Shown one piece after another: positions 1-14,282 of a stretch of 32,000 nucleotides of DNA. Origin of the DNA: an uncultured Candidatus Nitrosotenuis sp. (GTDB lineage: Archaea > Thermoproteota > Nitrososphaeria > Nitrososphaerales > Nitrosopumilaceae); assembly GCA_964449865.1 (NCBI GenBank), contig CAYVBR010000015.1, forward strand, positions 173,341 to 205,340, given 5' to 3'. Within the stretch, counting starts at the first letter, position 1. The number at the start of each line of letters is the position of its first letter. The position numbers were made by a program, and so were the translations under genes. Under the pieces are notes generated by a model. That model did not search any database and was not told the DNA's origin. It was given only the letters and a program-made list of their open reading frames with translations.

Positions 1-2000
1 ACAGACAGATGACTATAGTTCAGGCAAACGTTACTTTGCTTTACGAAAAAGCAGGGCAGGAATACGTCATAAACATGATTGATACTCCAGGCCACATTGA
101 CTTTACGGGAAGGGTAACTCGAAGCCTTAGGGCAATCGATGGCGCTGTGGTAGTATCTGACTCTGTAGAGGGAATCATGACTCAGACTGAAACCGTAACA
201 AGACAAGCACTGGAGGAGCGAGTCCGACCCGTTTTGTATATCAACAAAATCGACCGACTCATAAAAGAGCTAAGGCTTACTCCAGAAAAAATGCAAGAAT
301 GGCTAGTAAACATCATTACCACTTTTAACGGATTAATTGACACATACGCAGAACCCGAATACAAGGAGAAATGGAAGGTCTCAATTCAGGACGGCAGCGT
401 ATCGTTTGGCTCTGCAAAAGACAGGTGGGGCTTTAACATTGATATCATGAAAGAGAAAGGAATTTCATTTAAGGACATTTTCACTGCATATTCAGAAGGC
501 GGAAGCGTAGAAGATCTTGCAAAAAAGGCCCCGCTTGCAGAAGCAGTTCTGGGAATGGTCGTAAAACATCACCCACCACCACACATTGCACAAAAATACA
601 GAATTCCAAAAATCTGGAAAGGTGATCTGGATTCTGATATAGGCAAGGCGCTTTTGAATTGTGACGATACTGGTCCTGCAGTTATGATGATTGTAAACAT
701 GGCAATGGATCCTGCAGCTGGTCCTGTCGCAATAGGTCGACTGTTTGCCGGAACACTTCGAGACGGACAAACCGTAAATCTCATTGATACTAAGCGAGAG
801 GGAAAAATCCAATCTGTCAACTTTTTCATGGGCAACCAAAGAGAAATGGTCGGAGAACTTGGTGCCGGAAACATCCCTGCACTGCTTGGACTTACGGAAG
901 CTAGGGCAGGACAAACACTTTCAACTGTAAAAGAAGTTGCACTGTTTGAGGGAATCAAGTATGTGTCAGAGCCTGTGGTCCAGATAGCAGTCGAGGCGAA
1001 GCATCCAAAGGACTTGCCAAAACTAGTCGAGGCATTGCGAAGAATTACAATTGAAGATCCAAACCTGGTTGTCAAAATCAACGAGGAAAGCGGAGAAACA
1101 GTAATTGCCGGAATGGGCGTCTTGCACCTTGAAATCGCGGCATCCCTAATTGCCGACGCAGGCGTTCAGGTAGTCACATCGCAGCCTTTGATTAATTATA
1201 GAGAAACCATTCTGAGTGGAACTGATGCCGTCATGGCAAAATCGCCAAACAGGCACAACAAGATTTTCATGAGAGTGGAGCCACTTGAGCCAGAAATTGC
1301 AGACATGATACGAAGCGGCCAGCTTTCGGAAATGAAGGACAAAAAAGAAGTGGCTACAATTTTGCGATCAAAGGGCTGGGACTCTGACGTATCAAAGAAC
1401 ATCATGAAATTTGATCCTCGTGGAAATGTTATGATTAACGGAACAAAAGGTGTCCAGTTTATCCAAGAATCAACTGACTCTATCCTGTCTGGATTTGAGG
1501 ATGTGATGAAGGAGGGACCGCTTGCAAAAGAACAAGTGAGAAACTGCAAATTTACATTTACCCACTTTGTACCTCACGAGGACACTGCGCACAGAGGCCT
1601 CTCCCAACTGGGACCGGCGTCAAGACGCGCATGCATGGGTGCCATGCTAAAATCAAGCCCTATCCTGTTGGAGCCTCTTCTTGGAATCGAGGTTCGAGTT
1701 CCGCAAGACATGATCGGAAACGTTGCATCTGTCTTGTCTGGAAAAAGAGGCAAGGTACTTGATATGCAGCAAAAAGGAATCACAAGCATTGTTACTGGCG
1801 AAGTTCCAGCGTCTGAGACATTTGATTTGGCAGAAATAATGAGAGGCCAAACTGCCGGAAAGGCGATGTGGAACACCCACTTTAAGGCCTGGTCGCCAAT
1901 TCCAAAATCAATTCAGGCAACACTGATTGCAGATATCAGAAAGAGAAAGGGTCTAAGTCCAGAACCGCCAACTGCAGACGAGTTCATCGACAAAGAGTAA
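1..2000 (+). CDS. fusA: Translation elongation factor 2 (aEF-2), 5' end cut by window edge (codon phase starts at nt 3)
   Basis: GTPase motifs are present (DTPGHIDF, NKIDR). The diphthamide-site motif HEDTAHRGLSQ is in domain IV. The frame is open to the window start. The stop TAA at 1998..2000 lies inside the target-site duplication of the adjacent element. Confidence 0.95.
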   Translation, partial: RQMTIVQANVTLLYEKAGQEYVINMIDTPGHIDFTGRVTRSLRAIDGAVVVSDSVEGIMTQTETVTRQALEERVRPVLYINKIDRLIKELRLTPEKMQEWLVNIITTFNGLIDTYAEPEYKEKWKVSIQDGSVSFGSAKDRWGFNIDIMKEKGISFKDIFTAYSEGGSVEDLAKKAPLAEAVLGMVVKHHPPPHIAQKYRIPKIWKGDLDSDIGKALLNCDDTGPAVMMIVNMAMDPAAGPVAIGRLFAGTLRDGQTVNLIDTKREGKIQSVNFFMGNQREMVGELGAGNIPALLGLTEARAGQTLSTVKEVALFEGIKYVSEPVVQIAVEAKHPKDLPKLVEALRRITIEDPNLVVKINEESGETVIAGMGVLHLEIAASLIADAGVQVVTSQPLINYRETILSGTDAVMAKSPNRHNKIFMRVEPLEPEIADMIRSGQLSEMKDKKEVATILRSKGWDSDVSKNIMKFDPRGNVMINGTKGVQFIQESTDSILSGFEDVMKEGPLAKEQVRNCKFTFTHFVPHEDTAHRGLSQLGPASRRACMGAMLKSSPILLEPLLGIEVRVPQDMIGNVASVLSGKRGKVLDMQQKGITSIVTGEVPASETFDLAEIMRGQTAGKAMWNTHFKAWSPIPKSIQATLIADIRKRKGLSPEPPTADEFIDKE

Positions 2001-2003
2001 AAA
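1986..2003. repeat. Left copy of direct repeat / target-site duplication (atcgacaaagagtaaaaa)
   Basis: This 18-nt string is identical to 8519..8536. It covers the last four EF-2 codons (ATC GAC AAA GAG) plus the TAA stop. The final 5 A's overlap the first bases of the TIR, so the true TSD is 13-18 bp. Confidence 0.85.
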
Positions 2004-2037
2004 TAGTCACCCCCCTTCTGGTGCGTAAAAATCTGCA
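1999..2037 (+). repeat. Left terminal inverted repeat of casposon (39 bp, imperfect)
   Basis: The sequence is aaaaatagtcaccccccttctggtgcgtaaaaatctgca. The reverse complement of 8480..8518 is aaaaatagtctccccccactttacgcgtaaaaatctgca. About 32 of 39 positions match, with perfect outer 10 bp, a C6 run and an inner 14 bp. Confidence 0.85.
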
Positions 2038-2080
2038 TGAGTATCTTTTGAGAATCAGTCAACGGAATTCCAAAAATCAT

Positions 2081-2189
2081 GCATATAGAATTCTATATGC
2101 GTATTCTATATGCCTAGTTTGCAAATCCTATATGCCCAGATGATCAAACCTATAGGAATTCTATATGCGTGTCCTATATGCCTAGTTTG
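2081..2189. repeat. Subterminal iteron cluster: about seven copies of TYCTATATGC (one inverted, one degenerate), including a perfect 20-bp palindrome and a 34-bp direct repeat
   Basis: The palindrome gcatatagaattctatatgc is at 2081..2100. The 10-mer occurs at 2091, 2104, 2127, 2159 and 2172, plus an inverted copy at 2081 and a degenerate inverted copy at 2149. The 34-bp unit gaattctatatgcgtRtYctatatgcctagtttg is at 2088..2121 and 2156..2189, with 2 mismatches. Confidence 0.8.
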
Positions 2190-2246
2190 AGATTTTGTAG
2201 GTGTCAAAGGTATCAGTTCCAATGTGTGTCGTTTTGATGTGGGTTA

Positions 2247-2864
2247 CTAAAATTGTACAAGATCCAATTTATCGCCATTTTGCATCAACGTGTATTTTTT
2301 AGTGCCAGAGCTTTTTACTGATATCATATCTATGGCATCAAAGAGGATTTTCTTTTCCGCATCCGTTTTGCACAAACCACTGTAGAAATACCAAGCTAGT
2401 CCATCAACCATCATTTCTTCAAGAAAGGCTTTTCGCCATTCTTTTCCAGTCATAATATCCTCAATTTCCTGTTGAGTTTTCTGCTCCGCGTATAAGGGAT
2501 GTGGTAGTAACGATGCCAAAAGTTCCGTGATAGGGTAACTAGTAAATGAGAATTTACCTTTGGGAAGTTCTGCAGTTGTAGTTTTTGTGAGTATGCGTTC
2601 TAACTCCATTTCTGTTAATGCGTCAAAGAGAATTTTAAAATCCAATAGTGCTGACTCTGATTTTGCCCTCACTTCAGAAAAATATTTTGATAAATCTCTA
2701 TTTGTCCTTCGTTCCCATTTCTTCAATCCTGATAGTTTCTCGACTTGGTCTTTAGTCAAAAAGCCGTTTCTTCGTAATTCAAGTCGTTGTTTCGCTTTAT
2801 TCTGTAGTCGTTTCTTTTCATCTTGTGGTATTATTCGTAAATATTTGCGAATTTCATCATCCAT
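2247..2864 (-). CDS. Hypothetical protein, casposon-encoded (205 aa)
   Basis: This is a long ORF with a charged helical N-terminal half. It is divergent from the PolB operon across a 42-bp AT-rich spacer. I recognise no motif. Confidence 0.6.
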   Translation of the reverse strand: MDDEIRKYLRIIPQDEKKRLQNKAKQRLELRRNGFLTKDQVEKLSGLKKWERRTNRDLSKYFSEVRAKSESALLDFKILFDALTEMELERILTKTTTAELPKGKFSFTSYPITELLASLLPHPLYAEQKTQQEIEDIMTGKEWRKAFLEEMMVDGLAWYFYSGLCKTDAEKKILFDAIDMISVKSSGTKKYTLMQNGDKLDLVQF

Positions 2865-2906
2865 TTCGTATGATCAATTATCAATATTTCTAATTTATAT
2901 CATTTT

Positions 2907-3284
2907 ATGAAAAGATTAGAAACACTCAGAAACACGCTACAGAAAATTGATGACGAGATTCTAGACCTAGACAAATTCCGTGACACTCCAACTTTACGTA
3001 AATTCAGGCGTCAGTTGCAAGGAGAAGCAAGCGAAATCAGGGCTAAAATCGCAAAACTGGCAGAAACTCAGGAGCAAAAGAATACAGAACACCAAAAGAT
3101 CCTAGAAAGGGCAAGCAGAAACCGCAGTTCCAAGATGAGGCGAAATTGGAACTATCTACGAGCAATTCAGGCAAACTATTTTCCAAATCTTTCCTTGAAG
3201 GAAATCAGAAAACAGCATAAACTGCACAGGCAAGGTCTTGAATCATCAGTGTCAGACGTGGCTTGGAAAAACCCCAGCCCATGA
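2907..3284 (+). CDS. Hypothetical basic, coiled-coil-rich protein immediately upstream of PolB (125 aa)
   Basis: The ORF is rich in K/R/E/Q. Its TGA stop (3282..3284) overlaps an in-frame PolB ATG at 3281 (ATGA coupling). Confidence 0.6.
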   Translation: MKRLETLRNTLQKIDDEILDLDKFRDTPTLRKFRRQLQGEASEIRAKIAKLAETQEQKNTEHQKILERASRNRSSKMRRNWNYLRAIQANYFPNLSLKEIRKQHKLHRQGLESSVSDVAWKNPSP

Positions 3285-5152
3285 CTCCTTTTTTTCCAGT
3301 GTCAAAATCCAAGATCCTAGATAACATCAGAGTTATCAAACAGAACAGAAACCCAAACAATTCAAAACTGCGCAAAGTCGTTGCAATAGATACGGAGACT
3401 GAAAATGGCAATATTTTTCTCCTAGAGGATGATTCTGGAAGATTCCTAGATCAACACGATATCACGTTTGAAAATGTCGCAAGATTTCTTTTTCGATATG
3501 AGGGAACGTGGGTGTTTTGCTGGAATCTAGGCTATGATGCGATTTGTATTTTGAAACTGCTTCCAAGGCATATTTTGGACTCTTACAAGCACAACAGAAA
3601 ATTAAAGTTCAGATATTCTGGATATGAGATCAACTATATTCCAAACAAGCAACTAACATTACGAAAAGGAAAACATTCTGTCTCATTATACGACATGGCA
3701 CAATATTATGATAAAAAACCTCTTGCAAAGGCATTTTCTGAGAATTTCAATGAAATCTCCAAAGATTATCTGAAAATGAAGGAGTCAAGGCAGGACTTTA
3801 CATTATCACATTACCTGCGACACAAAAAACAGATTCGTGAATATTGCAAAATGGACTGTATTCTGACAAGGAAACTAGCTGAAAAATGGCTTGAAACTTT
3901 TTACAATGCGTTTGGGTTCTATCCAAGAAACTGGGTCAGTTCTGGATATTTGGGTGAAAAAGTGCTCATAAACAACGATATCTTTGTGCCTAGATTCAAC
4001 GAAGTTCCATATTTGGTTCAGGAACAGGCTTGGCTATCTTTCTACGGTGGACGGTTTGAACTGATCAAGCGCGGATTCATTGGCTATTGCTGTCTTTATG
4101 ATATCAATTCTGCATATCCTTTTGCACTGACTCAACTGCCTGATCTGACAAGAGGAAAATGGATTACTTCCAATAACATTCATCCAAAAACCAAAGTCGG
4201 ATTTTTTCACATCATAGCGGACATTAGTAATTCTGTCAAGGTATGTCCATTTCCGTTCCGAAACAAGAACAAGACCATAATCTACCCTTCGGGCAAATTT
4301 GAAACCTTTGTCACATTACATGAATTGTTGACAGTACAAAGAGATCCAAGAATCAAATACAAAATCTTGGAATCATACCAATTCATTCCAAACAAAAATT
4401 GTGGTTATCCATTCAGAGACTTTATTGGAATGATGTATGAGAAAAGGCTTGAATTAAAGAAACGGAATGATCCCCAGCAACAAGCACTCAAATTAATTCT
4501 AAATTCAATGTATGGGAAAACTGCACAGACTACAAATAATAGATTTGGAAACTTGTTCAATCCAGTAATTTCCTCATTTATCACAGGATTTGCAAGGGCA
4601 CAACTGTACCAGTTTGTCAGGGATAATAATTTGGAAAAAAATATAGTTGCATTCGCTACAGACTCTGTTGCAATTCAAAAGAAAATTCCTGATCTGAATA
4701 GTGAAAAGTTAGGAGAAATGAAATTAGACAAGGAATCTAATGATGCATACTATCTCTCAAACGGCTATTATCGGTTTAATGGAATTTGGAAGAATCGTGG
4801 AATCGGTAATGATCCGAGCGAAAAGAATGTCGAGATTGAGCACAAGGACACCATAGAAAACAAGGACGGTCAGTTGTACATAGAGGTAGAAACCACTCAA
4901 TTACAGCATCTGAAAAGTGCCATAATTCGCAATTTGCACAAGGACATAGGCAAGATTCGTACCTATCAAAGGAAGGTTTTCTTGAATTCAGATAGAAAAC
5001 GACTCTGGAATAGGGATCTGGAACGCATTGACGATGGAATATGGTGCGATTCTGCTCCTATTAACATGAGTGTTGACGGTGAGATTATTTCTATACAATC
5101 GGAGTTTGAGTGGATTGATGATGAAAAGTATGTGCCAGAGAGCGATCTTTAA
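3263..5152 (+). CDS. polB: Protein-primed family-B DNA polymerase (pPolB); alternative coupled start at 3281
   Basis: Exonuclease motifs are Exo I AIDTETE, Exo II WNLGYDAICIL and Exo III YCKMDCILT. Polymerase motifs are A (YDINSAYPFAL), B (KLILNSMYGKTAQ) and C (FATDSV). Confidence 0.88.
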   Translation: MEKPQPMTPFFPVSKSKILDNIRVIKQNRNPNNSKLRKVVAIDTETENGNIFLLEDDSGRFLDQHDITFENVARFLFRYEGTWVFCWNLGYDAICILKLLPRHILDSYKHNRKLKFRYSGYEINYIPNKQLTLRKGKHSVSLYDMAQYYDKKPLAKAFSENFNEISKDYLKMKESRQDFTLSHYLRHKKQIREYCKMDCILTRKLAEKWLETFYNAFGFYPRNWVSSGYLGEKVLINNDIFVPRFNEVPYLVQEQAWLSFYGGRFELIKRGFIGYCCLYDINSAYPFALTQLPDLTRGKWITSNNIHPKTKVGFFHIIADISNSVKVCPFPFRNKNKTIIYPSGKFETFVTLHELLTVQRDPRIKYKILESYQFIPNKNCGYPFRDFIGMMYEKRLELKKRNDPQQQALKLILNSMYGKTAQTTNNRFGNLFNPVISSFITGFARAQLYQFVRDNNLEKNIVAFATDSVAIQKKIPDLNSEKLGEMKLDKESNDAYYLSNGYYRFNGIWKNRGIGNDPSEKNVEIEHKDTIENKDGQLYIEVETTQLQHLKSAIIRNLHKDIGKIRTYQRKVFLNSDRKRLWNRDLERIDDGIWCDSAPINMSVDGEIISIQSEFEWIDDEKYVPESDL

Positions 5153-5176
5153 AAAAAACCAACGCTAATAGAAGTC

Positions 5177-6151
5177 ATGTCACAAAGTTGGGTGCATCAA
5201 TCTTGTCACGAAGTTTATAACTATTTGAAAACAATAGTGACACCAACATTACATATAGAAATCTTAGCCAATTCTAAATCTATTTGCACTATAGATGGAA
5301 TCCAAATAACAAACCAACATACACTCACATTAGCAAACTATGATGAAGTTCATGATGAAGTACTACAAGCCTTAAAATATGTTGGTGCGATTCCATTAAA
5401 TTTTTCTTTTATTGATAAAAATTCATTTAGTAAAGTTGAAAAATTAACAATTGCTGAAGATTTTGTGACATGGTACAACACACAGACATCGAAAAAAATG
5501 ATATTCATTGATACCAACATTATGCTACACCGAATTTTTTCATCTCTAGAACTTGCATTAGGTAGTTCTTTAGCTAGTAAAGATTTTGAAATCCCTAGAT
5601 TAACAATTTTAGAAATGGAGAGACAAGCAAATGCAAAAAACAACGAAGGAACATCCACAACTAACCACAAAGTTGGTCTAAAGAAAAGAAAAACATTGTT
5701 AGGATTTAGTGAACTATTATATCTTAAAAACAAAGGTGCTCAACACATGCCAGAACTGCCTTTGGAAACTTTAACTGGATTTAGTAATATTTCTGGAGAT
5801 GGGTTTACTGACGCGTGGATTAGACGAGAAATTAAGGATCGGAGGTTTTTCTTAATGCGTGCAGGTTCTGCTACGTTTCAGCTTTTTTTTACAGCTGATA
5901 TGGTCAACGCACTTTCAGCACTCGCTGAAGGGATTGATACTGTATACATTTCACCAGTACCGGAATGGGAAAAACATATTCAACAAATTAATTTGTCTCA
6001 AATCAGTCAATTGATTTGTTTTTTGGCTACATTACTTAATGACATAACAATAAACGTGAATTCGAACAAATCAAACATTAAAGGATTTTGGAGTGGAATA
6101 ACTACGTCTAACATAATAAATCGAGATATTCTTGTTCAAGCAATACCTTAG
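5177..6151 (+). CDS. Hypothetical protein with PIN-like nuclease signature (324 aa), casposon-encoded
   Basis: Acidic residues are spaced as in PIN domains: MIFIDTNIM, then ILEMERQ, then FTDAWIRREI, then FFTADMVNAL. The ~105-aa N-terminal extension is unrecognised. Confidence 0.6.
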   Translation: MSQSWVHQSCHEVYNYLKTIVTPTLHIEILANSKSICTIDGIQITNQHTLTLANYDEVHDEVLQALKYVGAIPLNFSFIDKNSFSKVEKLTIAEDFVTWYNTQTSKKMIFIDTNIMLHRIFSSLELALGSSLASKDFEIPRLTILEMERQANAKNNEGTSTTNHKVGLKKRKTLLGFSELLYLKNKGAQHMPELPLETLTGFSNISGDGFTDAWIRREIKDRRFFLMRAGSATFQLFFTADMVNALSALAEGIDTVYISPVPEWEKHIQQINLSQISQLICFLATLLNDITINVNSNKSNIKGFWSGITTSNIINRDILVQAIP

Positions 6152-6171
6152 CTAAAAATTTGTGGGAGATC

Positions 6172-6191
6172 TATGAAATGAGAATTTCATA
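6172..6191. terminator. Hairpin between convergent casposon genes (8-bp stem tatgaaat/atttcata, loop gaga)
   Basis: A perfect inverted repeat sits in the 41-bp gap between the 3' ends of the ORFs at 5177..6151 (+) and 6193..6846 (-). A terminator function is inferred only. Confidence 0.3.
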
Positions 6192-6192
6192 A

Positions 6193-6846
6193 CTACAGAT
6201 TTGCCACATCTTTGCAATACTGTTCTGTATCTCCGATATCTTTTCTATTCTCAAATTCATTTTTTAATGCTGTAAAATGTCTTAACGTTTTCTTATTCAA
6301 TTTTTGTCTGGTTTCTATTTCAACTCTTAAGGTTTTCCAATCCCTTACTATCATTTCACCGTACGTATCAAAGAACAACTCTTTGTTAATTAATCCATTC
6401 AATACTAGAACTGACACTTGATCTAACGAAGACAGTACGAGATCTACATTATCTTCCAAATCGTCAGTGTCAACGGCATTTTTAAAAACAATATCTAATT
6501 TTGCTTTTTTCAGTCTACAATATTCGTTATGAATCCGTGTCCTCGCTTTACGAACATCTGCCCTACTCAATAACTCAAAAACTTTTGTAAGAGTATCTTT
6601 TTGCAATTGTTTGTATTTGAAATGATTATTTGTTATTGCGATCATTATTGATGCAATTATTCCAAACCCAGCTAACGCCGCAGCTAATTTCTTATCATAA
6701 GATAACATATTTTCAGGCAATACGACAATAGAGATAGCAAAAAGAACGGCAAGTATGCCGACATTTCTCATATCTTTCTTAAACGCATCTCTAATCTTGG
6801 TAAATCCGTTTGAAAATTCTATGTGTGAGCTTTGTTTCTCTCTCAT
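6193..6846 (-). CDS. Membrane-anchored hypothetical protein (217 aa, two N-terminal TM helices), casposon-encoded
   Basis: The hydrophobic segments are GILAVLFAISIVVL and LAAALAGFGIIASIMIAI. The C-terminal helical domain carries the pattern LDQVSVLVLNGLINKELFFDTYGEMI. Confidence 0.65.
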   Translation of the reverse strand: MREKQSSHIEFSNGFTKIRDAFKKDMRNVGILAVLFAISIVVLPENMLSYDKKLAAALAGFGIIASIMIAITNNHFKYKQLQKDTLTKVFELLSRADVRKARTRIHNEYCRLKKAKLDIVFKNAVDTDDLEDNVDLVLSSLDQVSVLVLNGLINKELFFDTYGEMIVRDWKTLRVEIETRQKLNKKTLRHFTALKNEFENRKDIGDTEQYCKDVANL

Positions 6847-6922
6847 TTACAATCCAGTATTATCATCATCCTATAATTCAACTTGCCTACTGTTACTAAA
6901 CTAAATAGTTACAATATTCTTT

Positions 6923-7972
6923 CTAGGTAGCAATCAAAAAATTATGAATTGTAATTTTTACTATGGTAATTTCCTGACACAATGACATTCCGTTTTCTTT
7001 TTTCAATCCATGTTTGAACTTATACGGTCTTTCAGACTGGAGTTTCCTTTCCAATACTTCCAAAAACCTACGAATCAAATCGGTATCCATCACCACATTT
7101 CCGTCTTTAGTATGGGTGTAATCCTTGAATCTGATTCCATTTCTGTCCAGAATTGAAAATTTGTAAACTGAATGCTCAACAAGCCACCTAAAAGGTTCAA
7201 TCAGATCATACACCAAAGCCTGAAATGAGGTATCTGGTTTGTGATAGAATCCATAGTAAGGATCTAATCCTAAACCGTTGACAAACTTGGCAATCTCTCC
7301 TGCCAAAACGGTATAACCGTAATTCAAAAGGGCATTGATAATATCTGAGGCATAGCGCTTTGAATTGACAAGACCGCCGCCCCGCCTTGACTGAAAACTA
7401 TGTCTTTCTGGAATTAATTTAGCATAGTTTAGAAAATAATACCTTCCACTTCCCGCCTCTATTTTGATCAATTCCTTAAGATTTGTCTTGGAATCAATTT
7501 GGGAATGATATTGCTCTAGTTTTGAAATCCCATCTAGTTCCGGATTTTCTAAAGACTTGAAAAAGTTGATTTGTGCTTGAATCTTTTCCTTTAGAATCCA
7601 TTTTTGTAAATGCAAGACTTTGACAGGATCCCGAAAAGTGTCGTATTGATCCATTCGATATTTTATTGCAGTATTGGAAACCATTCCACCATTCATGAAT
7701 GATACTGGATTGCCGTAAGTATCGGTTAGAATAACGTTGATGTTGTTTTGACTTAGTAATGAAATGGCTTCAGTTGAAACATAGCCTTTTCCAGAAATCA
7801 CGATCTTCTCGTATGGGATTTTAGACACAAACCACTCTTCCTTTTCAGAGATTCCAGTTATGTCATTTTGACCGTTTTTTAGAATCAGATGATTGTCTTT
7901 TACGTTAATTGAGATTCCATAGCCACGAAGGAGTTTTACGTTGTAGTGATTTCGTTGTCCTTTTTCAGTCAT
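6923..7972 (-). CDS. cas1: Cas1-family integrase (casposase), 349 aa
   Basis: Cas1 signature blocks are present: IEAGSGRYYF (catalytic Glu), NALLNYGYTVL, GLDPYYGFYH (catalytic His) and LVYDLIEPFR (catalytic Asp/Glu pair). The N-terminal beta-rich domain has YGISINVKDNHLILKNG. Confidence 0.92.
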   Translation of the reverse strand: MTEKGQRNHYNVKLLRGYGISINVKDNHLILKNGQNDITGISEKEEWFVSKIPYEKIVISGKGYVSTEAISLLSQNNINVILTDTYGNPVSFMNGGMVSNTAIKYRMDQYDTFRDPVKVLHLQKWILKEKIQAQINFFKSLENPELDGISKLEQYHSQIDSKTNLKELIKIEAGSGRYYFLNYAKLIPERHSFQSRRGGGLVNSKRYASDIINALLNYGYTVLAGEIAKFVNGLGLDPYYGFYHKPDTSFQALVYDLIEPFRWLVEHSVYKFSILDRNGIRFKDYTHTKDGNVVMDTDLIRRFLEVLERKLQSERPYKFKHGLKKENGMSLCQEITIVKITIHNFLIAT

Positions 7973-8436
7973 TTTTGTTTATAGTTGGATATTTCTATCC
8001 AAGCTACATCACCGTATTTTTCTTGAGCTTTCTTGATGTATTCAATAACTTCAGTATTTTCTTTAATTAATTGTATGACCCACCCAAATGCTTGTTCTGC
8101 CATCGTTGACGTGAGTGTTCCTTGCTTGATCAAAATAGCTACGGTTTCTACTTCATTTAAAAAATTTTCAAGATCCCTTTCAGTGACGGAATTCTCGCCG
8201 TTTTGCAAAACTTTTTGTTTTAATCGAATCGCTTCAATGATTCTCTTTCCTTCGTCTGATCTGTAGATTGATTCATTCAACCTAAGTAAAAGATCCGCCT
8301 CTGTCGATTTTCTAAATAAATCGAATGAATCTTTAGCTATTTTGTTTGATTTTCGTGTTTGACGATCTGATAGAAATACGCCTAACAAAGCTACAGAGAT
8401 TCCTACAATTGCAGCATAAATTTCCCAATCTGCCAC
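7969..8436 (-). CDS. Membrane-anchored hypothetical protein (155 aa), translationally coupled to cas1
   Basis: The N-terminal TM helix is IYAAIVGISVALLGVFL. The stop overlaps the cas1 ATG (ATGA at 7969..7972). The C-terminal pattern LNEVETVAILIKQGTLTSTMAEQAFGWVI resembles that of the ORF at 6193..6846. Confidence 0.65.
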   Translation of the reverse strand: MADWEIYAAIVGISVALLGVFLSDRQTRKSNKIAKDSFDLFRKSTEADLLLRLNESIYRSDEGKRIIEAIRLKQKVLQNGENSVTERDLENFLNEVETVAILIKQGTLTSTMAEQAFGWVIQLIKENTEVIEYIKKAQEKYGDVAWIEISNYKQK

Positions 8437-8479
8437 GAAATAAGATTACTTTCAGTGTCTAAAAGATTTACGACAGCCC

Positions 8480-8518
8480 TGCAGATTTTTACGCGTAAAG
8501 TGGGGGGAGACTATTTTT
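8480..8518 (-). repeat. Right terminal inverted repeat of casposon
   Basis: Its reverse complement matches 1999..2037 at about 32 of 39 positions. It is followed directly by the right TSD copy. Confidence 0.85.
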
Positions 8519-8536
8519 ATCGACAAAGAGTAAAAA
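8519..8536. repeat. Right copy of direct repeat / target-site duplication
   Basis: The string atcgacaaagagtaaaaa is identical to 1986..2003. It is a non-coding duplicate of the EF-2 terminus. Confidence 0.85.
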
Positions 8537-8907
8537 GACAAGCCCCCTTCATTATGGTAATTCTGTAACTTGATTCATAAAACCAAACGATATGATTGTG
8601 AGGTTCCATCTAATATTTAGTAAAAGAATTTCCAATGCCGAATGAAAGTTGAAGTCGGTATTGATCCACGATTAACAGAAAAAATACTGCAATCTGATCT
8701 CTTGGGGTTCACAGAAAACCGCAGAGTAGTCTTTCTGATGTATATTTGACTGGAGTCGTTTTCACACAATCGTATTTTTCAAATTGAAGATGATCAAAAC
8801 AATATAGATTTTGACAAAACTTGAATTTTTTACCATTGTTTATTGTCGGCAAAGATATTGAGTCGTGTTGACAGCGGTATAAGTTTCATGGATACTTCTA
8901 TTCAACA

Positions 8908-9195
8908 TTATTGATTAATGTCTGAGATAGTTGATGCAAACACCTTTCCGCTTTTAGTCAAGGCAACGTTAATCTTGGAAGACTCTATTTTAGATTCAAC
9001 GAGTCCTTTTTTCTCTAGCCAAACAATGTGTTTTGCAAGTCTCGCGTAATTTAGATTGGCTTCAAGGGACAACTCCGTCTTGCCTTCAGCACCTTTATCT
9101 GCCATAATTTGCATGATACGTGATAGAACAGTCATACTTGGTTTAAAATCAGGTACTGGCTTCTTACTTTCAATGTTTTCTTGTTTTTTTATCAT
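8908..9195 (-). CDS. Small winged-helix DNA-binding protein (95 aa), paralog 1
   Basis: The layout is wHTH-like: LSRIMQIMADKG...LNYARLAKHIVWLEKKGLVES...INVALTKSGK. Residues around 46-80 are identical to the ORF at 11589..11864. Confidence 0.75.
   Translation of the reverse strand: MIKKQENIESKKPVPDFKPSMTVLSRIMQIMADKGAEGKTELSLEANLNYARLAKHIVWLEKKGLVESKIESSKINVALTKSGKVFASTISDINQ
8955..9060 (-). repeat. 106-bp perfect inverted repeat, arm 1 (inside wHTH paralog 1)
   Basis: By my reading, the reverse complement of 8955..9060 equals 11718..11823 exactly. Similarity decays sharply outside the block. Confidence 0.8.
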
Positions 9196-9218
9196 TCACT
9201 AACTTATTGTTAGTAAAG

Positions 9219-9262
9219 CTATTAAGCCACGCTGACATTTGAGTTATGTTCATTGACATGTG
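9219..9262 (-). promoter_or_regulatory. Shared promoter/operator module, copy A (upstream of wHTH paralog 1)
   Basis: The minus strand reads catgtcaatgaacataactcaaatgtcagcgtggcttaatag. The TATA-like ttaatag starts 30 nt before the ATG. About 41 of 49 positions match copy B with identical spacing. Confidence 0.6.
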
Positions 9263-9425
9263 TGTTAGGATCATGGACGAACTTGTCACCATTATGGACA
9301 AAAATACGGTTGTTGAATCGACATTACGAAGAAGGTAAAACCACTATGAAGTAAAACTATTTTTGGTATGCCTCTGAACATCCATCTACTGTAAAGTTAA
9401 TTTCTTAGATGGGATAATTGCGTTT

Positions 9426-9893
9426 ATGCAAAACGAGCATCGACAAAGTTACGGCATCGTTTACAAATCATTGGTGTTTTTTCTTATTCTGTATATGCCC
9501 GTTCTGTACACTCACGAATTAGGGCATTCTTTGGTATGTGTGTTTGAAGGTGGCCATGTTGAAACTCTGTACGTATCATGGCTCGGCGAGGGTAACAGCA
9601 GCTGTGTGCCAGAACCAGATGATCAATTTCTGTACCATCTGTCTGGAGGGGCATTTGCCAGCATGTTATCTGCCATACTGCTAATCGTATGGAAAACAAT
9701 TCCAAATTACGTCAAGATAGTTTCAATAACCTTTGCGGCAAGTCAGGGCATAAATGCGCTAATTGAGGCCTTTGTACACGTTAGTTACATCAATGATCAT
9801 TTTATGCGCTACACCGTATTTAACGTGATTACTTTTGCGATATTTACTGGTCTTATGATTGCGTATATTCGGCAACACTACAAAACTCTCTGA
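9426..9893 (+). CDS. Small polytopic membrane protein with HExxH motif (putative membrane metalloprotease-like), 155 aa
   Basis: An HELGH motif follows the first TM helix (YTHELGHSLV). At least four hydrophobic segments are present. The family is not identified. Confidence 0.55.
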   Translation: MQNEHRQSYGIVYKSLVFFLILYMPVLYTHELGHSLVCVFEGGHVETLYVSWLGEGNSSCVPEPDDQFLYHLSGGAFASMLSAILLIVWKTIPNYVKIVSITFAASQGINALIEAFVHVSYINDHFMRYTVFNVITFAIFTGLMIAYIRQHYKTL

Positions 9894-10040
9894 TTTTCAA
9901 AATAAATTTGACCCTGTTTGTGTAATGTTAGAAGTAAAATCCTACTATACTACATTATCAATTCTCTAGTTTCTTACTCTGCGGCACTTTCTTACTGCCT
10001 TTTAAAATATCCGTTGACAGATAAGTACACAATATTGATG

Positions 10041-10084
10041 GATCTGTCAATGAAACTAACACAAATGTAAGCGCAGCTTAATAG
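10041..10084 (+). promoter_or_regulatory. Shared promoter/operator module, copy B (upstream of the DUF3494-like gene)
   Basis: The sequence is gatctgtcaatgaaactaacacaaatgtaagcgcagcttaatag. The TATA-like box is 29 nt upstream of the ATG at 10107. An imperfect dyad attgatgga|tctgtcaat spans 10034..10051. Confidence 0.6.
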
Positions 10085-10106
10085 ATTTACTAATGATATT
10101 TTTTCA

Positions 10107-11018
10107 ATGACTAAAAATAACATCACAAATTATTTTGTAATGTCTGTACTGATATTCTCAGCTACTGGTATGTTACAAAATAATGCTTTTGCAGCACCGA
10201 CGCTTGGAACCGCTAACAATTTCGCAGTCCTAGGCGGCACGACAGTAACCAATACTGGCGCAACTATCGTCATAGGCGATCTTGGTGTCAGTTCACCTGG
10301 CGTCGCATGCACTGGATTTGTTGGATGTACAACAACTGGATTGGGAACCGTATCTGGAACCATACAGGTAGGTACTCCGATTGCAAATCAGGCTCATGCT
10401 GACGCAGCAACTGCATATGGATCACTCATTGGAACCGCATGTACGGTCAATGAACCAGCTGTTGCAGACATAGGCGGACAAACACTTACACCTGGAGTCT
10501 ATTGTTTCCCATCCTCAGCAGCCATAACTGGAAATCTTACTCTTAGTGGCAACGGAGTTTACATCTTCAAAATAGGAAGCACTCTTGTCACTGCAGCAAG
10601 TAACAGTAATGTAATACTGACAAATGGTGCCACAGCAAACAACGTCTTTTGGGCAGTGGGAAGTTCCGCAACTCTTGGAACTAACTCTATTCTCAAAGGA
10701 ACCGTAATTGCTTACACCTCAATCACCTCAACTGCTGGAGCAGCAGTAGACGGTAGACTGCTTGCGATAAATGGTGCAGTCACACTAGATACCAACAGAA
10801 TTACTATAGTTGGTCCTGGTACTGGCGATACAGGCGGACATAATGACGACGATTGTATTGGAGGACATGGTAATGGACACGGTAATGGACATGACAAAGA
10901 CCACGATGGAAAAGACCATGATGGCAAAGACCACAATGGAAAAGACCATGATGGAAAAAACCACAACGACAAAGACAATCACGGTAAAGATGCAGGCAAA
11001 AAATCAGGCAAAAACTAA
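10107..11018 (+). CDS. Secreted ice-binding-like (DUF3494-type) beta-solenoid protein with His/Asp/Lys-rich C-terminal tail
   Basis: A signal peptide ends in NAFA. The N-terminal signature [32 protein letters not shown], and later [15 protein letters not shown], are typical of DUF3494. The tail is [43 protein letters not shown]. Confidence 0.75.
   Translation: [303 protein letters not shown]
10861..10992 (+). repeat. In-frame tandem 15-bp repeats (aaagaccaYgatgga) encoding (K-D-H-D/N-G)n
   Basis: About six degenerate 15-bp units are visible, preceded by ggtaatggacaY x2. They also generate several spurious alternative-frame and antisense ORFs. Confidence 0.75.
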
Positions 11019-11588
11019 ACCCCCCTCTTTTTTTAATTATGTTTGATTGAGTCATATTATTTAGCAACCCCTAAAAGTTAGTGTCGAACATACATCTTGT
11101 TGGCAACTGGCTCTGGCTGTGCTAAGTGCAGACTCGTTCACAATGGATTGGTAGAACCAATCTGCAAGTGTAGATGTCATGTGGGACTGGCCACAGATCG
11201 GATTGAACTTGCAGCAAAATACATCGTGGAAGGCTCTAAGAGATGACTGAATCTAGAATTCGGCTTTTATTTGTTAACTGACAATGTCACTAAAAATTTG
11301 GCTTTGTTATGGTTCCGCACCAAAGATCAAGAAGATGATCAAGGAATCGTGTGTTGTTCATTTTGGAGTCTTTACTTCGTGCGTCCTTTGAGTCTTTTAC
11401 AAATCTCACAAAAGTTTTTACTTTTACGCTAATGGTTTTGTATTCTTTTCTGGGCAGGCTACAACCATTTGAGTATGCTATATAAGGATTGGTACGAATT
11501 CAGACACCTTTTTTCCGTTGCCGTGATATTCGCATTGCTACCTTAAATAGGATTGTCCCGTACAATTAATGGAGTAAGGTAGGAAATT

Positions 11589-11864
11589 ATGACACAAATA
11601 AGAATTGAAAGCACAACATTGGATCAGGACTTTGAGCCTAGCATAAAAACTCTGTCACGCATTATGCAAACCCTGACTGATAATGGCTCTGGCGGCAAGA
11701 CTCAGATATCACTTGATGCCAATCTAAATTACGCGAGACTTGCAAAACACATTGTTTGGCTAGAGAAAAAAGGACTCGTTGAATCTAAAATAGAGTCTTC
11801 CAAGATTAACGTTGCCTTGACTAGAAATGGCAAGGTATTTGCATCAATGATTTCAAAAGCGTAG
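11589..11864 (+). CDS. Small winged-helix DNA-binding protein (91 aa), paralog 2
   Basis: The wHTH layout matches the ORF at 8908..9195. The central/C-terminal segment is identical (LNYARLAKHIVWLEKKGLVESKIESSKINVALT) and the N-terminus has diverged. Confidence 0.75.
   Translation: MTQIRIESTTLDQDFEPSIKTLSRIMQTLTDNGSGGKTQISLDANLNYARLAKHIVWLEKKGLVESKIESSKINVALTRNGKVFASMISKA
11718..11823 (+). repeat. 106-bp perfect inverted repeat, arm 2 (inside wHTH paralog 2)
   Basis: It is identical to the reverse complement of 8955..9060. Confidence 0.8.
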
Positions 11865-11882
11865 ATATCAATAAAACTGATA

Positions 11883-11926
11883 GATCTGTCCATAAAACTT
11901 ACGACAATGTAAGCGCAGCTTAATAG
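11883..11926 (+). promoter_or_regulatory. Shared promoter/operator module, copy C (upstream of the beta-helix repeat gene)
   Basis: The sequence is gatctgtccataaaacttacgacaatgtaagcgcagcttaatag. The 37-nt offset between gatctgtc and the TATA-like box is the same as in copies B and D. The ATG follows 26 nt after the TATA start. Confidence 0.6.
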
Positions 11927-11945
11927 ATTTGTTAGTACTAAACTA

Positions 11946-12704
11946 ATGTTGACAAACATCAAGCAATTTCTGATATTTTCTGTTTTGGTTACCGTGATTT
12001 CTGTTATAGCCTTTACTACTCAAAACGTAGTGGCATTAACTATTGATGGCAGAACTGCGTGTGAATCTGCACCTATCAATGGAGTTTGGGTTCCACTCGA
12101 TAGAACCTGCACTGTTACGACTCTTGTGATTGGTTCTGTTGACGGATTAACTATTCCAACTGACGTGGTTCTAAATGCTATGGCAATAATTAACAGCGGT
12201 GTCATCACTAATAATGGCCAAGTTAACGTTGCATCTGGTGGTGTCATAACAACCTCTGGCAAGATTAACAATTATGGAATTATTGGTATTGATGATGGTA
12301 CGATAACAAACAGCGGTCAATTTGTAAATATTGGCATCGTCGATTCGTCTGGAACAATTACAAATGGTCAGACGGGTGTCATGTTCATTATGGGCAGTAT
12401 AATTAACGACGGTGTCATCACCTCGTCTGGAAATATAGCCGTAAACAGCACTGGCATACTAGTCAATAATGGCGCCATGATCAATACGCTGAATATGATT
12501 AACGACGGTGTCATCATTACGTCTGGTACATTTACCAACAGCGGCCCAGTTACAAATATCGGTGATATTTGGAGCTCAGGCCTCGTCGTTAATAATAATT
12601 CAATTATTAATCCTGGCAACATATACAATCTGTGCGGTGGAACAGTCACTGATTCCGGAACAATAGCCGTAAATGCGGTAATTGCCTGTGTAGACCTGCC
12701 TTAA
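11946..12704 (+). CDS. Secreted repeat protein, probable parallel beta-helix (252 aa)
   Basis: An N-terminal signal/anchor is present (FLIFSVLVTVISVIAF). There are many short G-x-I-T-N-x-G / INN-x-G repeats, for example SGVITNNGQVNV, GGVITTSGKINN, DGTITNSGQFVN and SGTITNGQTGV. Confidence 0.7.
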   Translation: MLTNIKQFLIFSVLVTVISVIAFTTQNVVALTIDGRTACESAPINGVWVPLDRTCTVTTLVIGSVDGLTIPTDVVLNAMAIINSGVITNNGQVNVASGGVITTSGKINNYGIIGIDDGTITNSGQFVNIGIVDSSGTITNGQTGVMFIMGSIINDGVITSSGNIAVNSTGILVNNGAMINTLNMINDGVIITSGTFTNSGPVTNIGDIWSSGLVVNNNSIINPGNIYNLCGGTVTDSGTIAVNAVIACVDLP

Positions 12705-12850
12705 GGAATATGTTTTTCTAATACAAAAATTGCTTCTGACTCCGAATTAATTCTATGACTGCCTGATCTCGTGCAACTTGGATCATAGGACTGGATAATG
12801 ACACTAACTAAAATTTACAATATTAAATAACCATCCCACCCAAAATTGGC

Positions 12851-13261
12851 ATGTCACAAGTTTGGCTAGGCAGAATCTATCTAAAAGAAGAGGGTGGATA
12901 TGAAATTATTTTACGTGCCTTGGGCCATTACAGAAAAAGATTAAAGTCAATCGGAAAGTCCCCCGAACTAAAGGATGCGCCAATGTTTGCAACAATAGTT
13001 ATCTCTGAGGCAAGCAAGATTGGGCCTCAAATCGACCCCGCAATATCAAAAATAAAAAATGCGCTGGAGCATCCAGAAATGCTATCTGAACTGCAGGCAG
13101 ATGTTCCGTTGTATGAAAAAGCGCTAAATTGTTACGAATCTGACATCAAACGAGCGCAAAACGAAGAGTTCTATTCTAACCTGCTATCTGGAAATGATTA
13201 CGTGGCCACTGATTACGATAACATCAAAACAGCGCTTGAAAAAATAAGCCAGTTCTCTTAG
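12851..13261 (+). CDS. Hypothetical protein (136 aa)
   Basis: The ORF has plausible composition but I recognise no motif. Its 3' end overlaps the convergent neighbour by 4 nt. Confidence 0.55.
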   Translation: MSQVWLGRIYLKEEGGYEIILRALGHYRKRLKSIGKSPELKDAPMFATIVISEASKIGPQIDPAISKIKNALEHPEMLSELQADVPLYEKALNCYESDIKRAQNEEFYSNLLSGNDYVATDYDNIKTALEKISQFS

Positions 13262-13605
13262 TCTGATTTTGAGTCTGCCGATTTTTTCCTTTCCAATGCA
13301 TCAATTTTCTCAGCAAGATCCAATATTTTGTTTAGTGTCTCCTCATTCTGCAAATCAATTTTCTGTATTTTGTTTAGGATGGTATCGTGCTTTTCATCGT
13401 ATTTTTTTATTCTATTCAAAGTCAAATCTTGAATGTCTGCAATTTTCTTTTGGCGATAGTAGACCCACCAGCTGATTATGCCACCTATTGCAGCTCCGCC
13501 CGCTATTCCAACGTATGTGCTTGACGCATTTGTCATGTCTATGCAGTCTTTGGTTATTTCAGGAATGCAACCAAACAAAAAAAGCAAGTCTTGAAACATG
13601 CTCAT
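13258..13605 (-). CDS. Membrane-anchored coiled-coil hypothetical protein (115 aa)
   Basis: A TM helix (GIAGGAAIGGIISWWVYY) is followed by a heptad-like charged helix. Confidence 0.55.
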   Translation of the reverse strand: MSMFQDLLFLFGCIPEITKDCIDMTNASSTYVGIAGGAAIGGIISWWVYYRQKKIADIQDLTLNRIKKYDEKHDTILNKIQKIDLQNEETLNKILDLAEKIDALERKKSADSKSD

Positions 13606-13682
13606 ACTCTATGTCTGCTTTATAACATGTTTTCGCTCTTGAAAGGACTGAATCAAATACTGGAAAAATCTAATTCGGCATT

Positions 13683-13916
13683 ATGGGAATAAAGACGGCA
13701 TCCGAATACGTAAAGTTCTATGTCGGACTTGACATGCAGGGAAGCATTGGGCTTTTGAGCTTTGTAAATAATGAGCGGCTAGTCCTGAAGCATAAGCTTG
13801 AAAACAAAAACTTGGCAAAGGATCCAATTCTACACGGCCTTAGAATTCTAGACGACCTGACAAATGAAATACAAATCTTTGGCGAGGCCTCCGTTTTAGA
13901 AAAATATTCAAAATGA
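13683..13916 (+). CDS. Hypothetical protein (77 aa)
   Basis: This rests on the ORF only. Confidence 0.4.
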   Translation: MGIKTASEYVKFYVGLDMQGSIGLLSFVNNERLVLKHKLENKNLAKDPILHGLRILDDLTNEIQIFGEASVLEKYSK

Positions 13917-13947
13917 ATCTGACTGATGTGCGGCTCGTAAATCTTTG

Positions 13948-14226
13948 TCAGCGAATCTTCTTATGTCTATAACGATTTTTGATGAATCTGTTGTGATATT
14001 GATCATGTGATAATGCATACTGCATCAGCCCATCATGGATCTTTTTTGGTACGCCAAAGTATTGGTATATGCCTCCCTGGCGGAACTCTATCTCAAGCGT
14101 CTGCGTCGCCTCGTCATATCCGACTGATTTTAGATCACTTGACTCAATACGCATCCTTTCCATCCCATGTTCTGTGTACTGTGTCCATAAAACCATACTG
14201 CGGTTCATGAAAAATTCCGAAATCAA
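13948..14226 (-). CDS. KTSC-domain protein (true start probably internal, Met at 14163 or 14154)
   Basis: The sequence SDLKSVGYDEATQTLEIEFRQGGIYQYFGVPKKIHDGLMQ...NRFIKNRYRHKKI matches the KTSC pattern (S-x-I-x-x-V-G-Y-D...L-E-V-E-F...Y-x-Y-x-x-V-P). Confidence 0.75.
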   Translation of the reverse strand: MISEFFMNRSMVLWTQYTEHGMERMRIESSDLKSVGYDEATQTLEIEFRQGGIYQYFGVPKKIHDGLMQYALSHDQYHNRFIKNRYRHKKIR

Positions 14227-14282
14227 GTTGTTCTGGATTAACCAAAACCATTTTCACCTAATTCACTAACAAATTGTTCTAA

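Follow-up and report, generated by a model that had tools for sequence, protein, structure and literature searches.

The locus described here raises the question of how a mobile element came to sit directly at the 3′ end of an essential gene, and how much of that gene was duplicated when it entered. The window, by which we mean the whole stretch of DNA analysed, is 32 kb from a Nitrosotenuis archaeon, and all coordinates refer to it. It opens with the 3′ part of the aEF-2 gene (1–2000, plus strand; the start of the gene lies before the window), which runs through the last codons TTC ATC GAC AAA GAG to a TAA stop at 1998–2000. From 1999 to 8518 there follows a 6,520-bp element with the termini 5′-AAAAATAGTC...GACTATTTTT-3′. 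Casposons are transposons that replicate themselves and integrate by means of a Cas1 protein. In our reading, to which we give a probability of about 0.92, this element is an intact and ordinary family 1 casposon that was inserted site-specifically at the 3′ end of aEF-2 by a Cas1-type casposase, with a target-site duplication (TSD) of 13 bp. An earlier note on this DNA had likewise proposed a casposon at the EF-2 3′ end, and the proposal is borne out by a Cas1 casposase, a DNA polymerase of family B and protein-primed type (PolB), terminal inverted repeats (TIRs) and the TSD.

The open reading frame (ORF) ending at 2000 matches the Pfam models GTP_EFTU, EFG_III, EFG_IV and EFG_C and is 100% identical to P0001, a 730-aa EF-2. 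Its nearest named relatives are the EF-2 proteins of Ca. Nitrosotenuis sp. DW1 and N. chungbukensis, each at 99.2% aa identity, and within its 90%-identity cluster every named member belongs to Ca. Nitrosotenuis or to an unclassified thaumarchaeal metagenome-assembled genome. The GC content falls from 45% in EF-2 to 31–38% in the element. A stretch of 8,984 nt recurs at 100% identity, always in the same context, in metagenome assembly contigs from several sequencing runs, and the identical element occurs in the SRR13076xxx series and in SRR14271354. Two sets of loci were used for comparison, the EF-2 3′ ends of 80 Nitrosopumilaceae species representatives (L001–L080) and 80 metagenomic loci with casposase relatives.

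The left junction reads ...GAG TTC ATC GAC AAA GAG TAA AAATAGTCACCCCCC, with ATCGAC starting at 1986, and the right junction reads GACTATTTTT (8509–8518) followed by ATCGACAAAGAGTAAAAAGACA (8519–8540). The 18-mer ATCGACAAAGAGTAAAAA spans both; it has exactly two matches in the window (1986–2003 and 8519–8536) when two mismatches are allowed, both of them exact, and 100 dinucleotide-preserving shuffles gave a chance expectation of 0. The junction coordinates and sequences given in the earlier note, as well as its 18-mer and its non-coding duplicate of the last four EF-2 codons (8519–8533, which also includes the stop), are all confirmed. The longest inverted repeat in 1800–8800 has arms of 40 nt at 1998–2037 and 8480–8519 that are 83% complementary and abut the direct repeat at both ends. 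The base that precedes the repeat is C1985 on the left, the end of the TTC Phe codon, and T8518 on the right, the end of the TIR T-run. Since these bases differ, the duplication starts no earlier than 1986, and a leader ending in C rather than T makes its left limit unambiguous. Within the window the right limit is ambiguous, as A5 comes next in the TIR and in the right flank alike. We place the two 13-bp TSD copies, exact repeats of ATCGACAAAGAGT, at 1986–1998 (plus strand), where the copy ends on the T of the EF-2 stop codon, and at 8519–8531 (plus strand), where it is non-coding. The leader-side flank TTC (1983–1985, plus strand) then occupies positions −3 to −1. The left TIR lies at 1999–2037 (plus strand), its first two A's finishing the EF-2 stop codon, and the right TIR at 8480–8518 (minus strand), ending in T5. 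The left TIR is laid out as A5, six variable bases and a C-run at offset 11, an arrangement shared with 44 other casposon ends.

We also considered ATCGACAAAGAGTAAAAA as a dispersed repeat and rejected this candidate. All of IMG/VR holds one exact match, which lies in an unrelated sequence context and is consistent with chance. Occurrence of the 18-mer at many unrelated loci, which the earlier note had named as counting against its proposal, was not found, the tally being two copies in the window and that one match.

Seven ORFs lie between the direct repeats. The casposase gene (6923–7972, minus strand) encodes a 349-aa Cas1-family protein without a helix-turn-helix (HTH) domain at its C-terminus; it matches PF01867 at 9.5e-50 and TIGR00287 at 1.8e-45, and the top solved structure is that of the M. 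mazei casposase 6OPM (1e-30), with an alignment to the 431-aa chain that stops at chain residue 321. Residues E172, H244, D256 and E259 are invariant among 14 relatives. The protein shows 52% identity with the NitAR1-C1 casposase core and 58% with the Nitrososphaera evergladensis SR1 Cas1. The polymerase gene (3281–5152, plus strand) encodes 623 aa when read from its ATG at 3281; as delimited mechanically, the ORF begins at a TTG at 3263. It matches PF03175 (DNA_pol_B_2) at 3.1e-24 and phrog_11768 at 1.7e-62 over residues 20–579 of 623, and L081 has a gene call for it. PF03175, the organellar and viral, protein-primed model, ranks well above PF00136 (0.0024), and by this best Pfam model the polymerase is assigned to the protein-primed type.

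The element thus combines what characterises a casposon, namely a non-CRISPR Cas1 integrase, a family B polymerase and TIRs with a flanking TSD. It also has several traits of family 1: casposase similarity without an HTH, a PolB of protein-primed type, a thaumarchaeal host and insertion in the 3′-distal part of ef-2. On these grounds it is classified as a family 1 casposon, the assignment of the casposase being made by identity and the lack of an HTH rather than from a phylogenetic tree. A Pfam scan of the 23 ORFs of at least 60 aa in 1–17666 found neither Cas2 nor any other Cas family; the scan covered that interval and left aside the ORFs of 17.7–32 kb. No CRISPR array or tRNA gene was found in the 32-kb window.

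Insertion at this site has been described before. Three complete thaumarchaeal casposons lie in the 3′-distal part of aEF-2 and leave the gene unaltered, and in many casposons TSD and TIR overlap (Krupovic et al. 2014, PMC4046053); in that listing NitAR1-C1 has a 21-bp repeat, an 8/6-nt TIR overlap and a TIR starting ..TAAAAATAGAATCCCCC. The ef-2 gene is the commonest thaumarchaeal casposon target, and tandem insertion has been reported there (Krupovic et al. 2019, PMC6563490). Beguin et al. (2019, PMC6614799) demonstrated that the NitAR1 casposase integrates target-specifically, and Wang et al. (2021, PMC8464041) mapped the joins and reduced the putative 22-bp repeat of NitAR1-C1 to a 13-bp TSD, 5′-ATTGATAAAGAGT-3′. 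The first four bp of the 22-bp repeat are leader and the last five belong to the spacer side, so that the T-run and the A5 flanking the TSD lie outside the duplication (PMC8464041). Integration depends on A1, A11, T13, a minimal TTT leader and an AAA spacer-side flank, the ruler is ATAA at positions 5–8, and full-site integration of a mini-casposon gave a 13-bp duplication (PMC8464041). The window TSD ATCGACAAAGAGT is homologous to ATTGATAAAGAGT position by position and retains A1, A11 and T13. The in vitro assay suggested in the earlier note, with purified casposase, TIR oligonucleotides and an EF-2 target, is therefore already in the literature for the orthologous NitAR1-C1 and gave 13 bp (PMC6614799, PMC8464041).

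Natural tests of the duplication length come from other loci. L007 and L008, from another Nitrosotenuis lineage, form an empty/filled pair that is 99.6% identical through EF-2 and 98.9% identical downstream. With hyphens marking the boundaries, the empty site in L007 (around 1860) reads TTC-ATCGACAAAGAGT-GAACATC and the filled site in L008 reads TTC-ATCGACAAAGAGT-AAAAATGG...TTTTTT-ATCGACAAAGAGT-GAACATC. The insert in L008 (10747–15737) is a decayed casposon of 4,970 bp with a truncated cas1 and non-matching ends. As the repeat in L008 is bounded by mismatches at both sides, the duplication is at most 13 bp. Upon insertion the EF-2 stop changed from TGA in L007 to TAA in L008, and the final two stop-codon bases thus come from the element. 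Both the rebuilt stop and the 13-bp upper bound are read directly from this pair, just as the repeat, the TIRs and the gene content are read directly from the window.

Six complete two-ended elements, three at EF-2 variants (L027, L093, L128) and three at other targets (L126, L131, L132), add to this picture. Across the four different targets involved, the repeat has a 13-bp core with A first and T last, and the ends run A4–5...T5. In L131 and L132 the right flanks read AATTTG and AAGGTA, which limits any extra identity to at most 2 nt. Among the 45 casposon ends examined, 44 start with A5–7 and one with A4, irrespective of the target; a constant A-run across targets means that it travels with the element. 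The earlier suggestion of a staggered cut of 13–14 bp, with the A5 common to TIR and flank, agrees with these loci and with the NitAR1-C1 TSD. A rule by which T13 would in every case be the first base of a TAA stop codon was tried and dropped: it holds at EF-2 sites and in L126, at the end of a 345-aa ORF, and not clearly in L131, and the flank in L132 is too short to judge. The L126 element itself is a 2.3-kb miniature with perfect TIRs and a truncated cas1, placed at the end of that 345-aa non-EF-2 gene.

Taken together with the biochemistry, these data suggest how the window element entered. The casposase would attack the two target strands 13 bp apart, on the leader side between C1985 and A1986 and on the spacer side after the T of the stop codon, and gap repair would duplicate ATCGACAAAGAGT to give the copies at 1986–1998 and 8519–8531. 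The exact cleavage positions and the 13-bp ruler we infer by homology to NitAR1-C1. The apparent 18-bp repeat would then consist of the 13-bp TSD plus five A's, which on the left would be the element terminus and on the right pre-existing flank. The ends of the element, AAAAA...TTTTT, would mimic the T-rich and A-rich flanks of the target; given such mimicry, insertion rebuilds the EF-2 stop from a host T and an element AA, and regenerates a usable target on both sides, from which tandem arrays and relic ends at the site would follow. The earlier note had held that insertion leaves the EF-2 ORF and stop codon intact. A TAA stop is indeed present, though with the TSD ending at T1998 its AA is supplied by the element and the stop is rebuilt rather than preserved.

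Three other accounts of the repeat have to be weighed against a 13-bp TSD. The duplication might be 18 bp (or 14–18 bp) long, with a stagger spanning ATCGACAAAGAGTAAAAA and an element that begins with TAGTC; identity at the junctions does run for 18 bp, and the first survey gave 21-bp repeats that overlap the TIRs (PMC4046053). This is highly improbable given that the repeat of the L007/L008 pair ends at 13 bp, where GAGT is followed by GAACATC, that L131 and L132 allow at most 2 nt more, that NitAR1-C1 biochemistry gives 13 bp (PMC8464041), and that casposon ends carry their own A-run whatever the target. Alternatively, the duplication could be shorter, 11–12 bp, comprising TCGACAAAGAG plus or minus one flanking base, and the ends TAAAAA...TTTTTA would belong to the element. 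The computed inverted repeat does take in T1998 and A8519, and element-borne bases would also explain why all natural repeat cores read A...T. The empty site in L007, however, already has A and T flanking the 11-mer. In vitro, the joins made by NitAR1-C1 oligonucleotides without those bases fell precisely at A1 and after T13, and mutation of A1 or T13 in the target abolished integration (PMC8464041). We regard this shorter duplication as very unlikely, and it is the published NitAR1-C1 biochemistry alone, not sequence, that excludes it. Scarcely credible is an 18-mer that serves as the attL/attR core of a tyrosine or serine recombinase, as in integrative elements that target tRNA genes. Such elements typically enter a conserved gene at its 3′ end and restore the end of the gene, but Pfam, NCBIfam and PHROG searches found no tyrosine or serine recombinase among the seven ORFs, TIRs and a Cas1 casposase are present, and the repeat core varies by target while the ends stay constant.

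Several points do weigh against the 13-bp casposon insertion that we favour. Sequence comparison bounds the TSD from above only, and an 11- or 12-bp duplication with an element-borne T...A would yield the same sequence. The cleavage positions lean on the NitAR1-C1 casposase, which is just 52% identical. The leader base at −1 is C in the window, and a T-1C change reduced leader-side integration by NitAR1-C1 in vitro (PMC8464041). The published TIR substrates ended in ...TTCTA-3′ without a T-run, and the termini of the free element are accordingly putative. Finally, the empty-site 30-mer that we reconstructed, CATCGACAAAGAGTAAAAAGACAAGCCCCC, had 0 matches in JGI metagenome contigs, and all three contigs with an identical EF-2 (3/3) are filled, leaving no casposon-free allele of this exact site among them.

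Under the 13-bp reading, the casposon-free allele would be TTC-ATCGACAAAGAGT-AAAAAGACAAG, and the empty allele or excision product would have ...GAGTTCATCGACAAAGAGT joined directly to AAAAAGACAAGCCCCC, with exactly one 13-mer. The earlier note had proposed aligning the junctions with such an empty site; none was found for the exact site, and the comparison could be made in the L007/L008 pair of the other lineage, where the empty allele holds one 13-bp copy. The EF-2 loci closest to the window are not clean empty sites: L090 and L091 (EF-2 99.9% aa identity) and L092 (99.6% aa) have either a solo TIR or a TIR-like flank that has degenerated. Of the unoccupied Nitrosotenuis sites L004 is the closest (87% nt identity), and it reads TTC-ATCGATAAAGAGT-AAAAACAACC. 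As this site is empty and still has A5 after GAGT, the A5 there can be native.

What, then, lies to the right of the second TSD copy? The flank AAAAAGACAAGCCCCCTTC (8532–8550, plus strand) is laid out like the left terminus of a casposon, as A5-N6-C5, before the similarity ends; after its A5 comes GACAAGCCCCC, which resembles the opening ~16 nt of a further casposon end. Probably the flank is a stub left by an older casposon that had inserted here, in which case the present element would have entered on the EF-2 side of it. Downstream we found no third TSD copy and no right end that matches the stub. The alternative that AAAAAGACAAGCCCCC (8532–8547) is pristine host flank with a chance resemblance to a TIR gains something from empty Nitrosotenuis and other Nitrosopumilaceae sites, which often read GAGT-AAAAA (L004, L031, L063, L066), and from a C-run followed by T's after another stop codon (11016–11035), so that the motif could be terminator-like. 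We nevertheless think it unlikely. The A5-N6-C5 layout fits the other tabulated ends, whose C-run has an offset of 11, 12 or 13; of just three occurrences of the motif in the 32 kb, two come immediately after GAGT; the C-run is absent at empty sites; and in L090 and L091 a solo TIR persists at the same place in the absence of a casposon. The earlier note had taken the A5 right of the second copy for native target. With a stub as the probable source this no longer stands as the first choice, although L004 illustrates that an empty site can carry the same A5.

The EF-2 site has been used widely. Of the 77 species representatives scored (the 80 less three loci whose contig ends at or just past the stop), 43 have a casposon-type terminus directly behind the stop-codon T, and several more loci carry degenerate versions of one. 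When 15 such loci with 10 kb of downstream sequence were inspected, a full cas1 was present in 2, fragments in 4 and none in 9; with the full gene in just 2 of 15, most EF-2 casposon ends are relics. In L090 (10123–10160) and L091 (6184–6221), the closest relatives by EF-2 (95% nt identity over that gene), the gene is followed by a 38-nt solo TIR that is 89% identical to the TIR of the window. True tandem arrays are found in L027, L065 and L128. At the 43 occupied sites G10, A11 and T13 are invariant and A1 is present in 37; the leader base at −1 is T in 32 and C in 11, and position 6 has T at 17 sites and C at 26. Natural C at −1 and at position 6 indicates that the in vitro preference for T at −1 and for an ATAA ruler is either not strict or enzyme-dependent.

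Two side observations concern this site. Two or three TSD copies stand between different casposons or casposon fragments in L027, L065, L128, L066 and L074. In L090 and L091 the solo TIR is followed by the short palindrome ATCTGACGTCAGAT, and the winged-helix gene nearby runs in the opposite direction to its window counterpart.

From the survey we would tentatively propose, as a possibility that we hold to be doubtful at present, that the EF-2 3′ flank of Nitrosopumilaceae acts as a polar landing pad that accumulates casposon ends. Every insertion would regenerate the target, new elements would enter beside the gene and older ones would decay to stubs. On this proposal more than half of the sampled species would have casposon-derived DNA fixed at the end of an essential gene, comprising the final two stop-codon bases and the first ~15–40 nt of 3′ flank. 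The relic ends, made up of the TSD and an A5-N6-C-run, might still direct integration or might by now be of use to the host, for instance as part of the EF-2 3′ end or of a terminator. Nitrosotenuis-type casposases would in addition accept C at leader −1, which is disfavoured by the only enzyme characterised so far.

The remaining parts of the element are as follows. The motif T[TC]CTATATGC[ACG] is repeated six times at 2080–2182, five times in direct and once in inverted orientation, in the interval that separates the left TIR from the first gene. No counterpart of these repeats was found on the right side of the element; they may act as an array of binding sites or as a promoter region for the casposon. 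The first gene, a 205-aa ORF (2247–2864, minus strand), matched no family in Pfam, NCBIfam or PHROG and is weakly conserved in two other loci. A 125-aa ORF (2907–3284, plus strand) lies directly upstream of PolB and is a conserved small casposon protein: tblastn matched it in 13 other loci with a family 1-type Cas1, at 36–57% identity among the matches listed, its homologue is directly upstream of PolB in L027 and L093 (the loci with coordinates compared), and searches of Pfam, NCBIfam and PHROG gave no match above threshold. Published family 1 elements have three to four conserved small uncharacterised genes immediately upstream of the protein-primed PolB. Here one candidate gene of this kind is seen, the 125-aa ORF, the weakly conserved 205-aa ORF being on the opposite strand. 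The NCBIfam and PHROG searches aimed at the cargo matched the polymerase and none of the four cargo ORFs, two of which have a DUF4760 domain. The 324-aa ORF (5177–6151, plus strand) is element-specific, with no homologues found in Pfam, NCBIfam, PHROG or by tblastn against the other loci. Two ORFs flank the casposase gene as further element-specific cargo, one of 217 aa (6193–6846, minus strand; PF15956, 5.5e-12) and one of 155 aa with a weak DUF4760 match (7969–8436, minus strand; PF15956, 4.4e-6). Apart from one partial match in L142, no DUF4760 ORF was found in the other complete family 1 elements examined.

Downstream of the element, the segment 8537–8833 has no homologue in any other species and did not align with the corresponding stretch of N. 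chungbukensis. In L019 the gene found at 14283 in the window lies ~200 bp after EF-2, and in L004 the gene found at 12851 follows after ~1.1 kb, from which much of 8537–12800 is extra material in the window lineage. Neither L004 nor L019 has the DNA from 8537 to about 12800, which looks like a further insertion. Small paralogous winged-helix (HTH_45) genes lie at 8908–9195 (minus strand) and 11589–11864 (plus strand), with several copies in L001, and metagenome contigs break inside the first of them, at a point that matches window position 8984. The ORF at 10107–11018 (plus strand) has an ice-binding-like domain (PF11999, 3e-52), and its 3′ end (10863–10990) is a 15/30/45-nt tandem repeat; after its stop comes ACCCCCCTCTTTTTTT, a C-run/T-run motif like the start of a casposon end and possibly a terminator. 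The ORF at 14283–17666 (plus strand; 1,127 aa) encodes eight fibronectin type III repeats that derive from 306-nt tandem DNA repeats, and synteny with the surroundings of EF-2 in L019 starts at this gene.

The significance of the locus is mostly confirmatory, as a clean natural example of what had been found in vitro with one family 1 casposase. No Nitrosotenuis casposon is among those reported by Krupovic et al. (2019, PMC6563490), and the element looks like a compact family 1 member from Nitrosotenuis that has not been described before; the insertion phenomenon itself has been published in detail. The comparative analysis adds an in vivo empty/filled pair with its 13-bp bound and stop-codon swap, tolerance of C at −1 and at ruler position 6, and the count of 43 in 77 sites. 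The current picture of casposons and of CRISPR origins is unchanged.

The closest known systems are the Nitrosopumilus casposons NitAR1-C1, NitSJ-C1 and NitAR2-C1. They have the same target as the window element, the last aEF-2 codons (FIDKE*), and NitAR1-C1 has a homologous 13-bp TSD in which A1, A11 and T13 are kept. The termini of the group and those of the window begin AAAAATAG with an equal C-run offset, both have a compact Cas1 without an HTH (347 aa in the group, 349 aa in the window) and a protein-primed PolB, and in both the repeat looks longer than the true TSD, with A/T-run ends overlapping the flanks. The window element differs in its host, Nitrosotenuis rather than Nitrosopumilus, with a casposase identity of just 52%, in its size (6,520 bp versus 7,649–8,187 bp), in its TIRs (40 nt at 83% identity versus 68–71 nt), in the leader base at −1 (C versus T in NitAR1-C1), in the ruler at positions 5–8 (ACAA versus ATAA) and in a cargo of two DUF4760 ORFs and a 324-aa orphan. 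Reuse of the EF-2 site, to which the TIR-like stub in the window would correspond, is also seen in the tandem elements NitNF5-C1 and NitNF5-C2 of Ca. Nitrosopumilus adriaticus NF5 and in the ef-2 casposon of Ca. Nitrosotalea devanaterra (PMC6563490). In contrast to the NitNF5 pair, the second element in the window is only ~16–19 nt long and lacks a third TSD copy.

Family 2 casposons (Aciduliprofundum boonei AciBoo-C1, Methanosarcina mazei) and the CRISPR Cas1-Cas2 complex share with the window a Cas1-fold integrase, a target that resembles a leader plus repeat, and a staggered attack with a ruler and target duplication. Family 2 enzymes have a C-terminal HTH, mostly target the 3′ ends of tRNA genes and make 14–15-bp TSDs, whereas the window casposase has no HTH and targets EF-2. 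CRISPR integration requires Cas2 and places ~30-bp spacers into longer repeats; the window, by contrast, shows neither a Cas2 among the scanned ORFs nor an array. Tn7 uses the TnsABCD enzymology and inserts downstream of its target gene. At attTn7 (glmS) it likewise recognises the 3′ end of an essential conserved gene and leaves the product unchanged, an analogy drawn in PMC4046053. Unlike Tn7, the window element would have entered through a cut inside the stop codon, giving two of its three bases.

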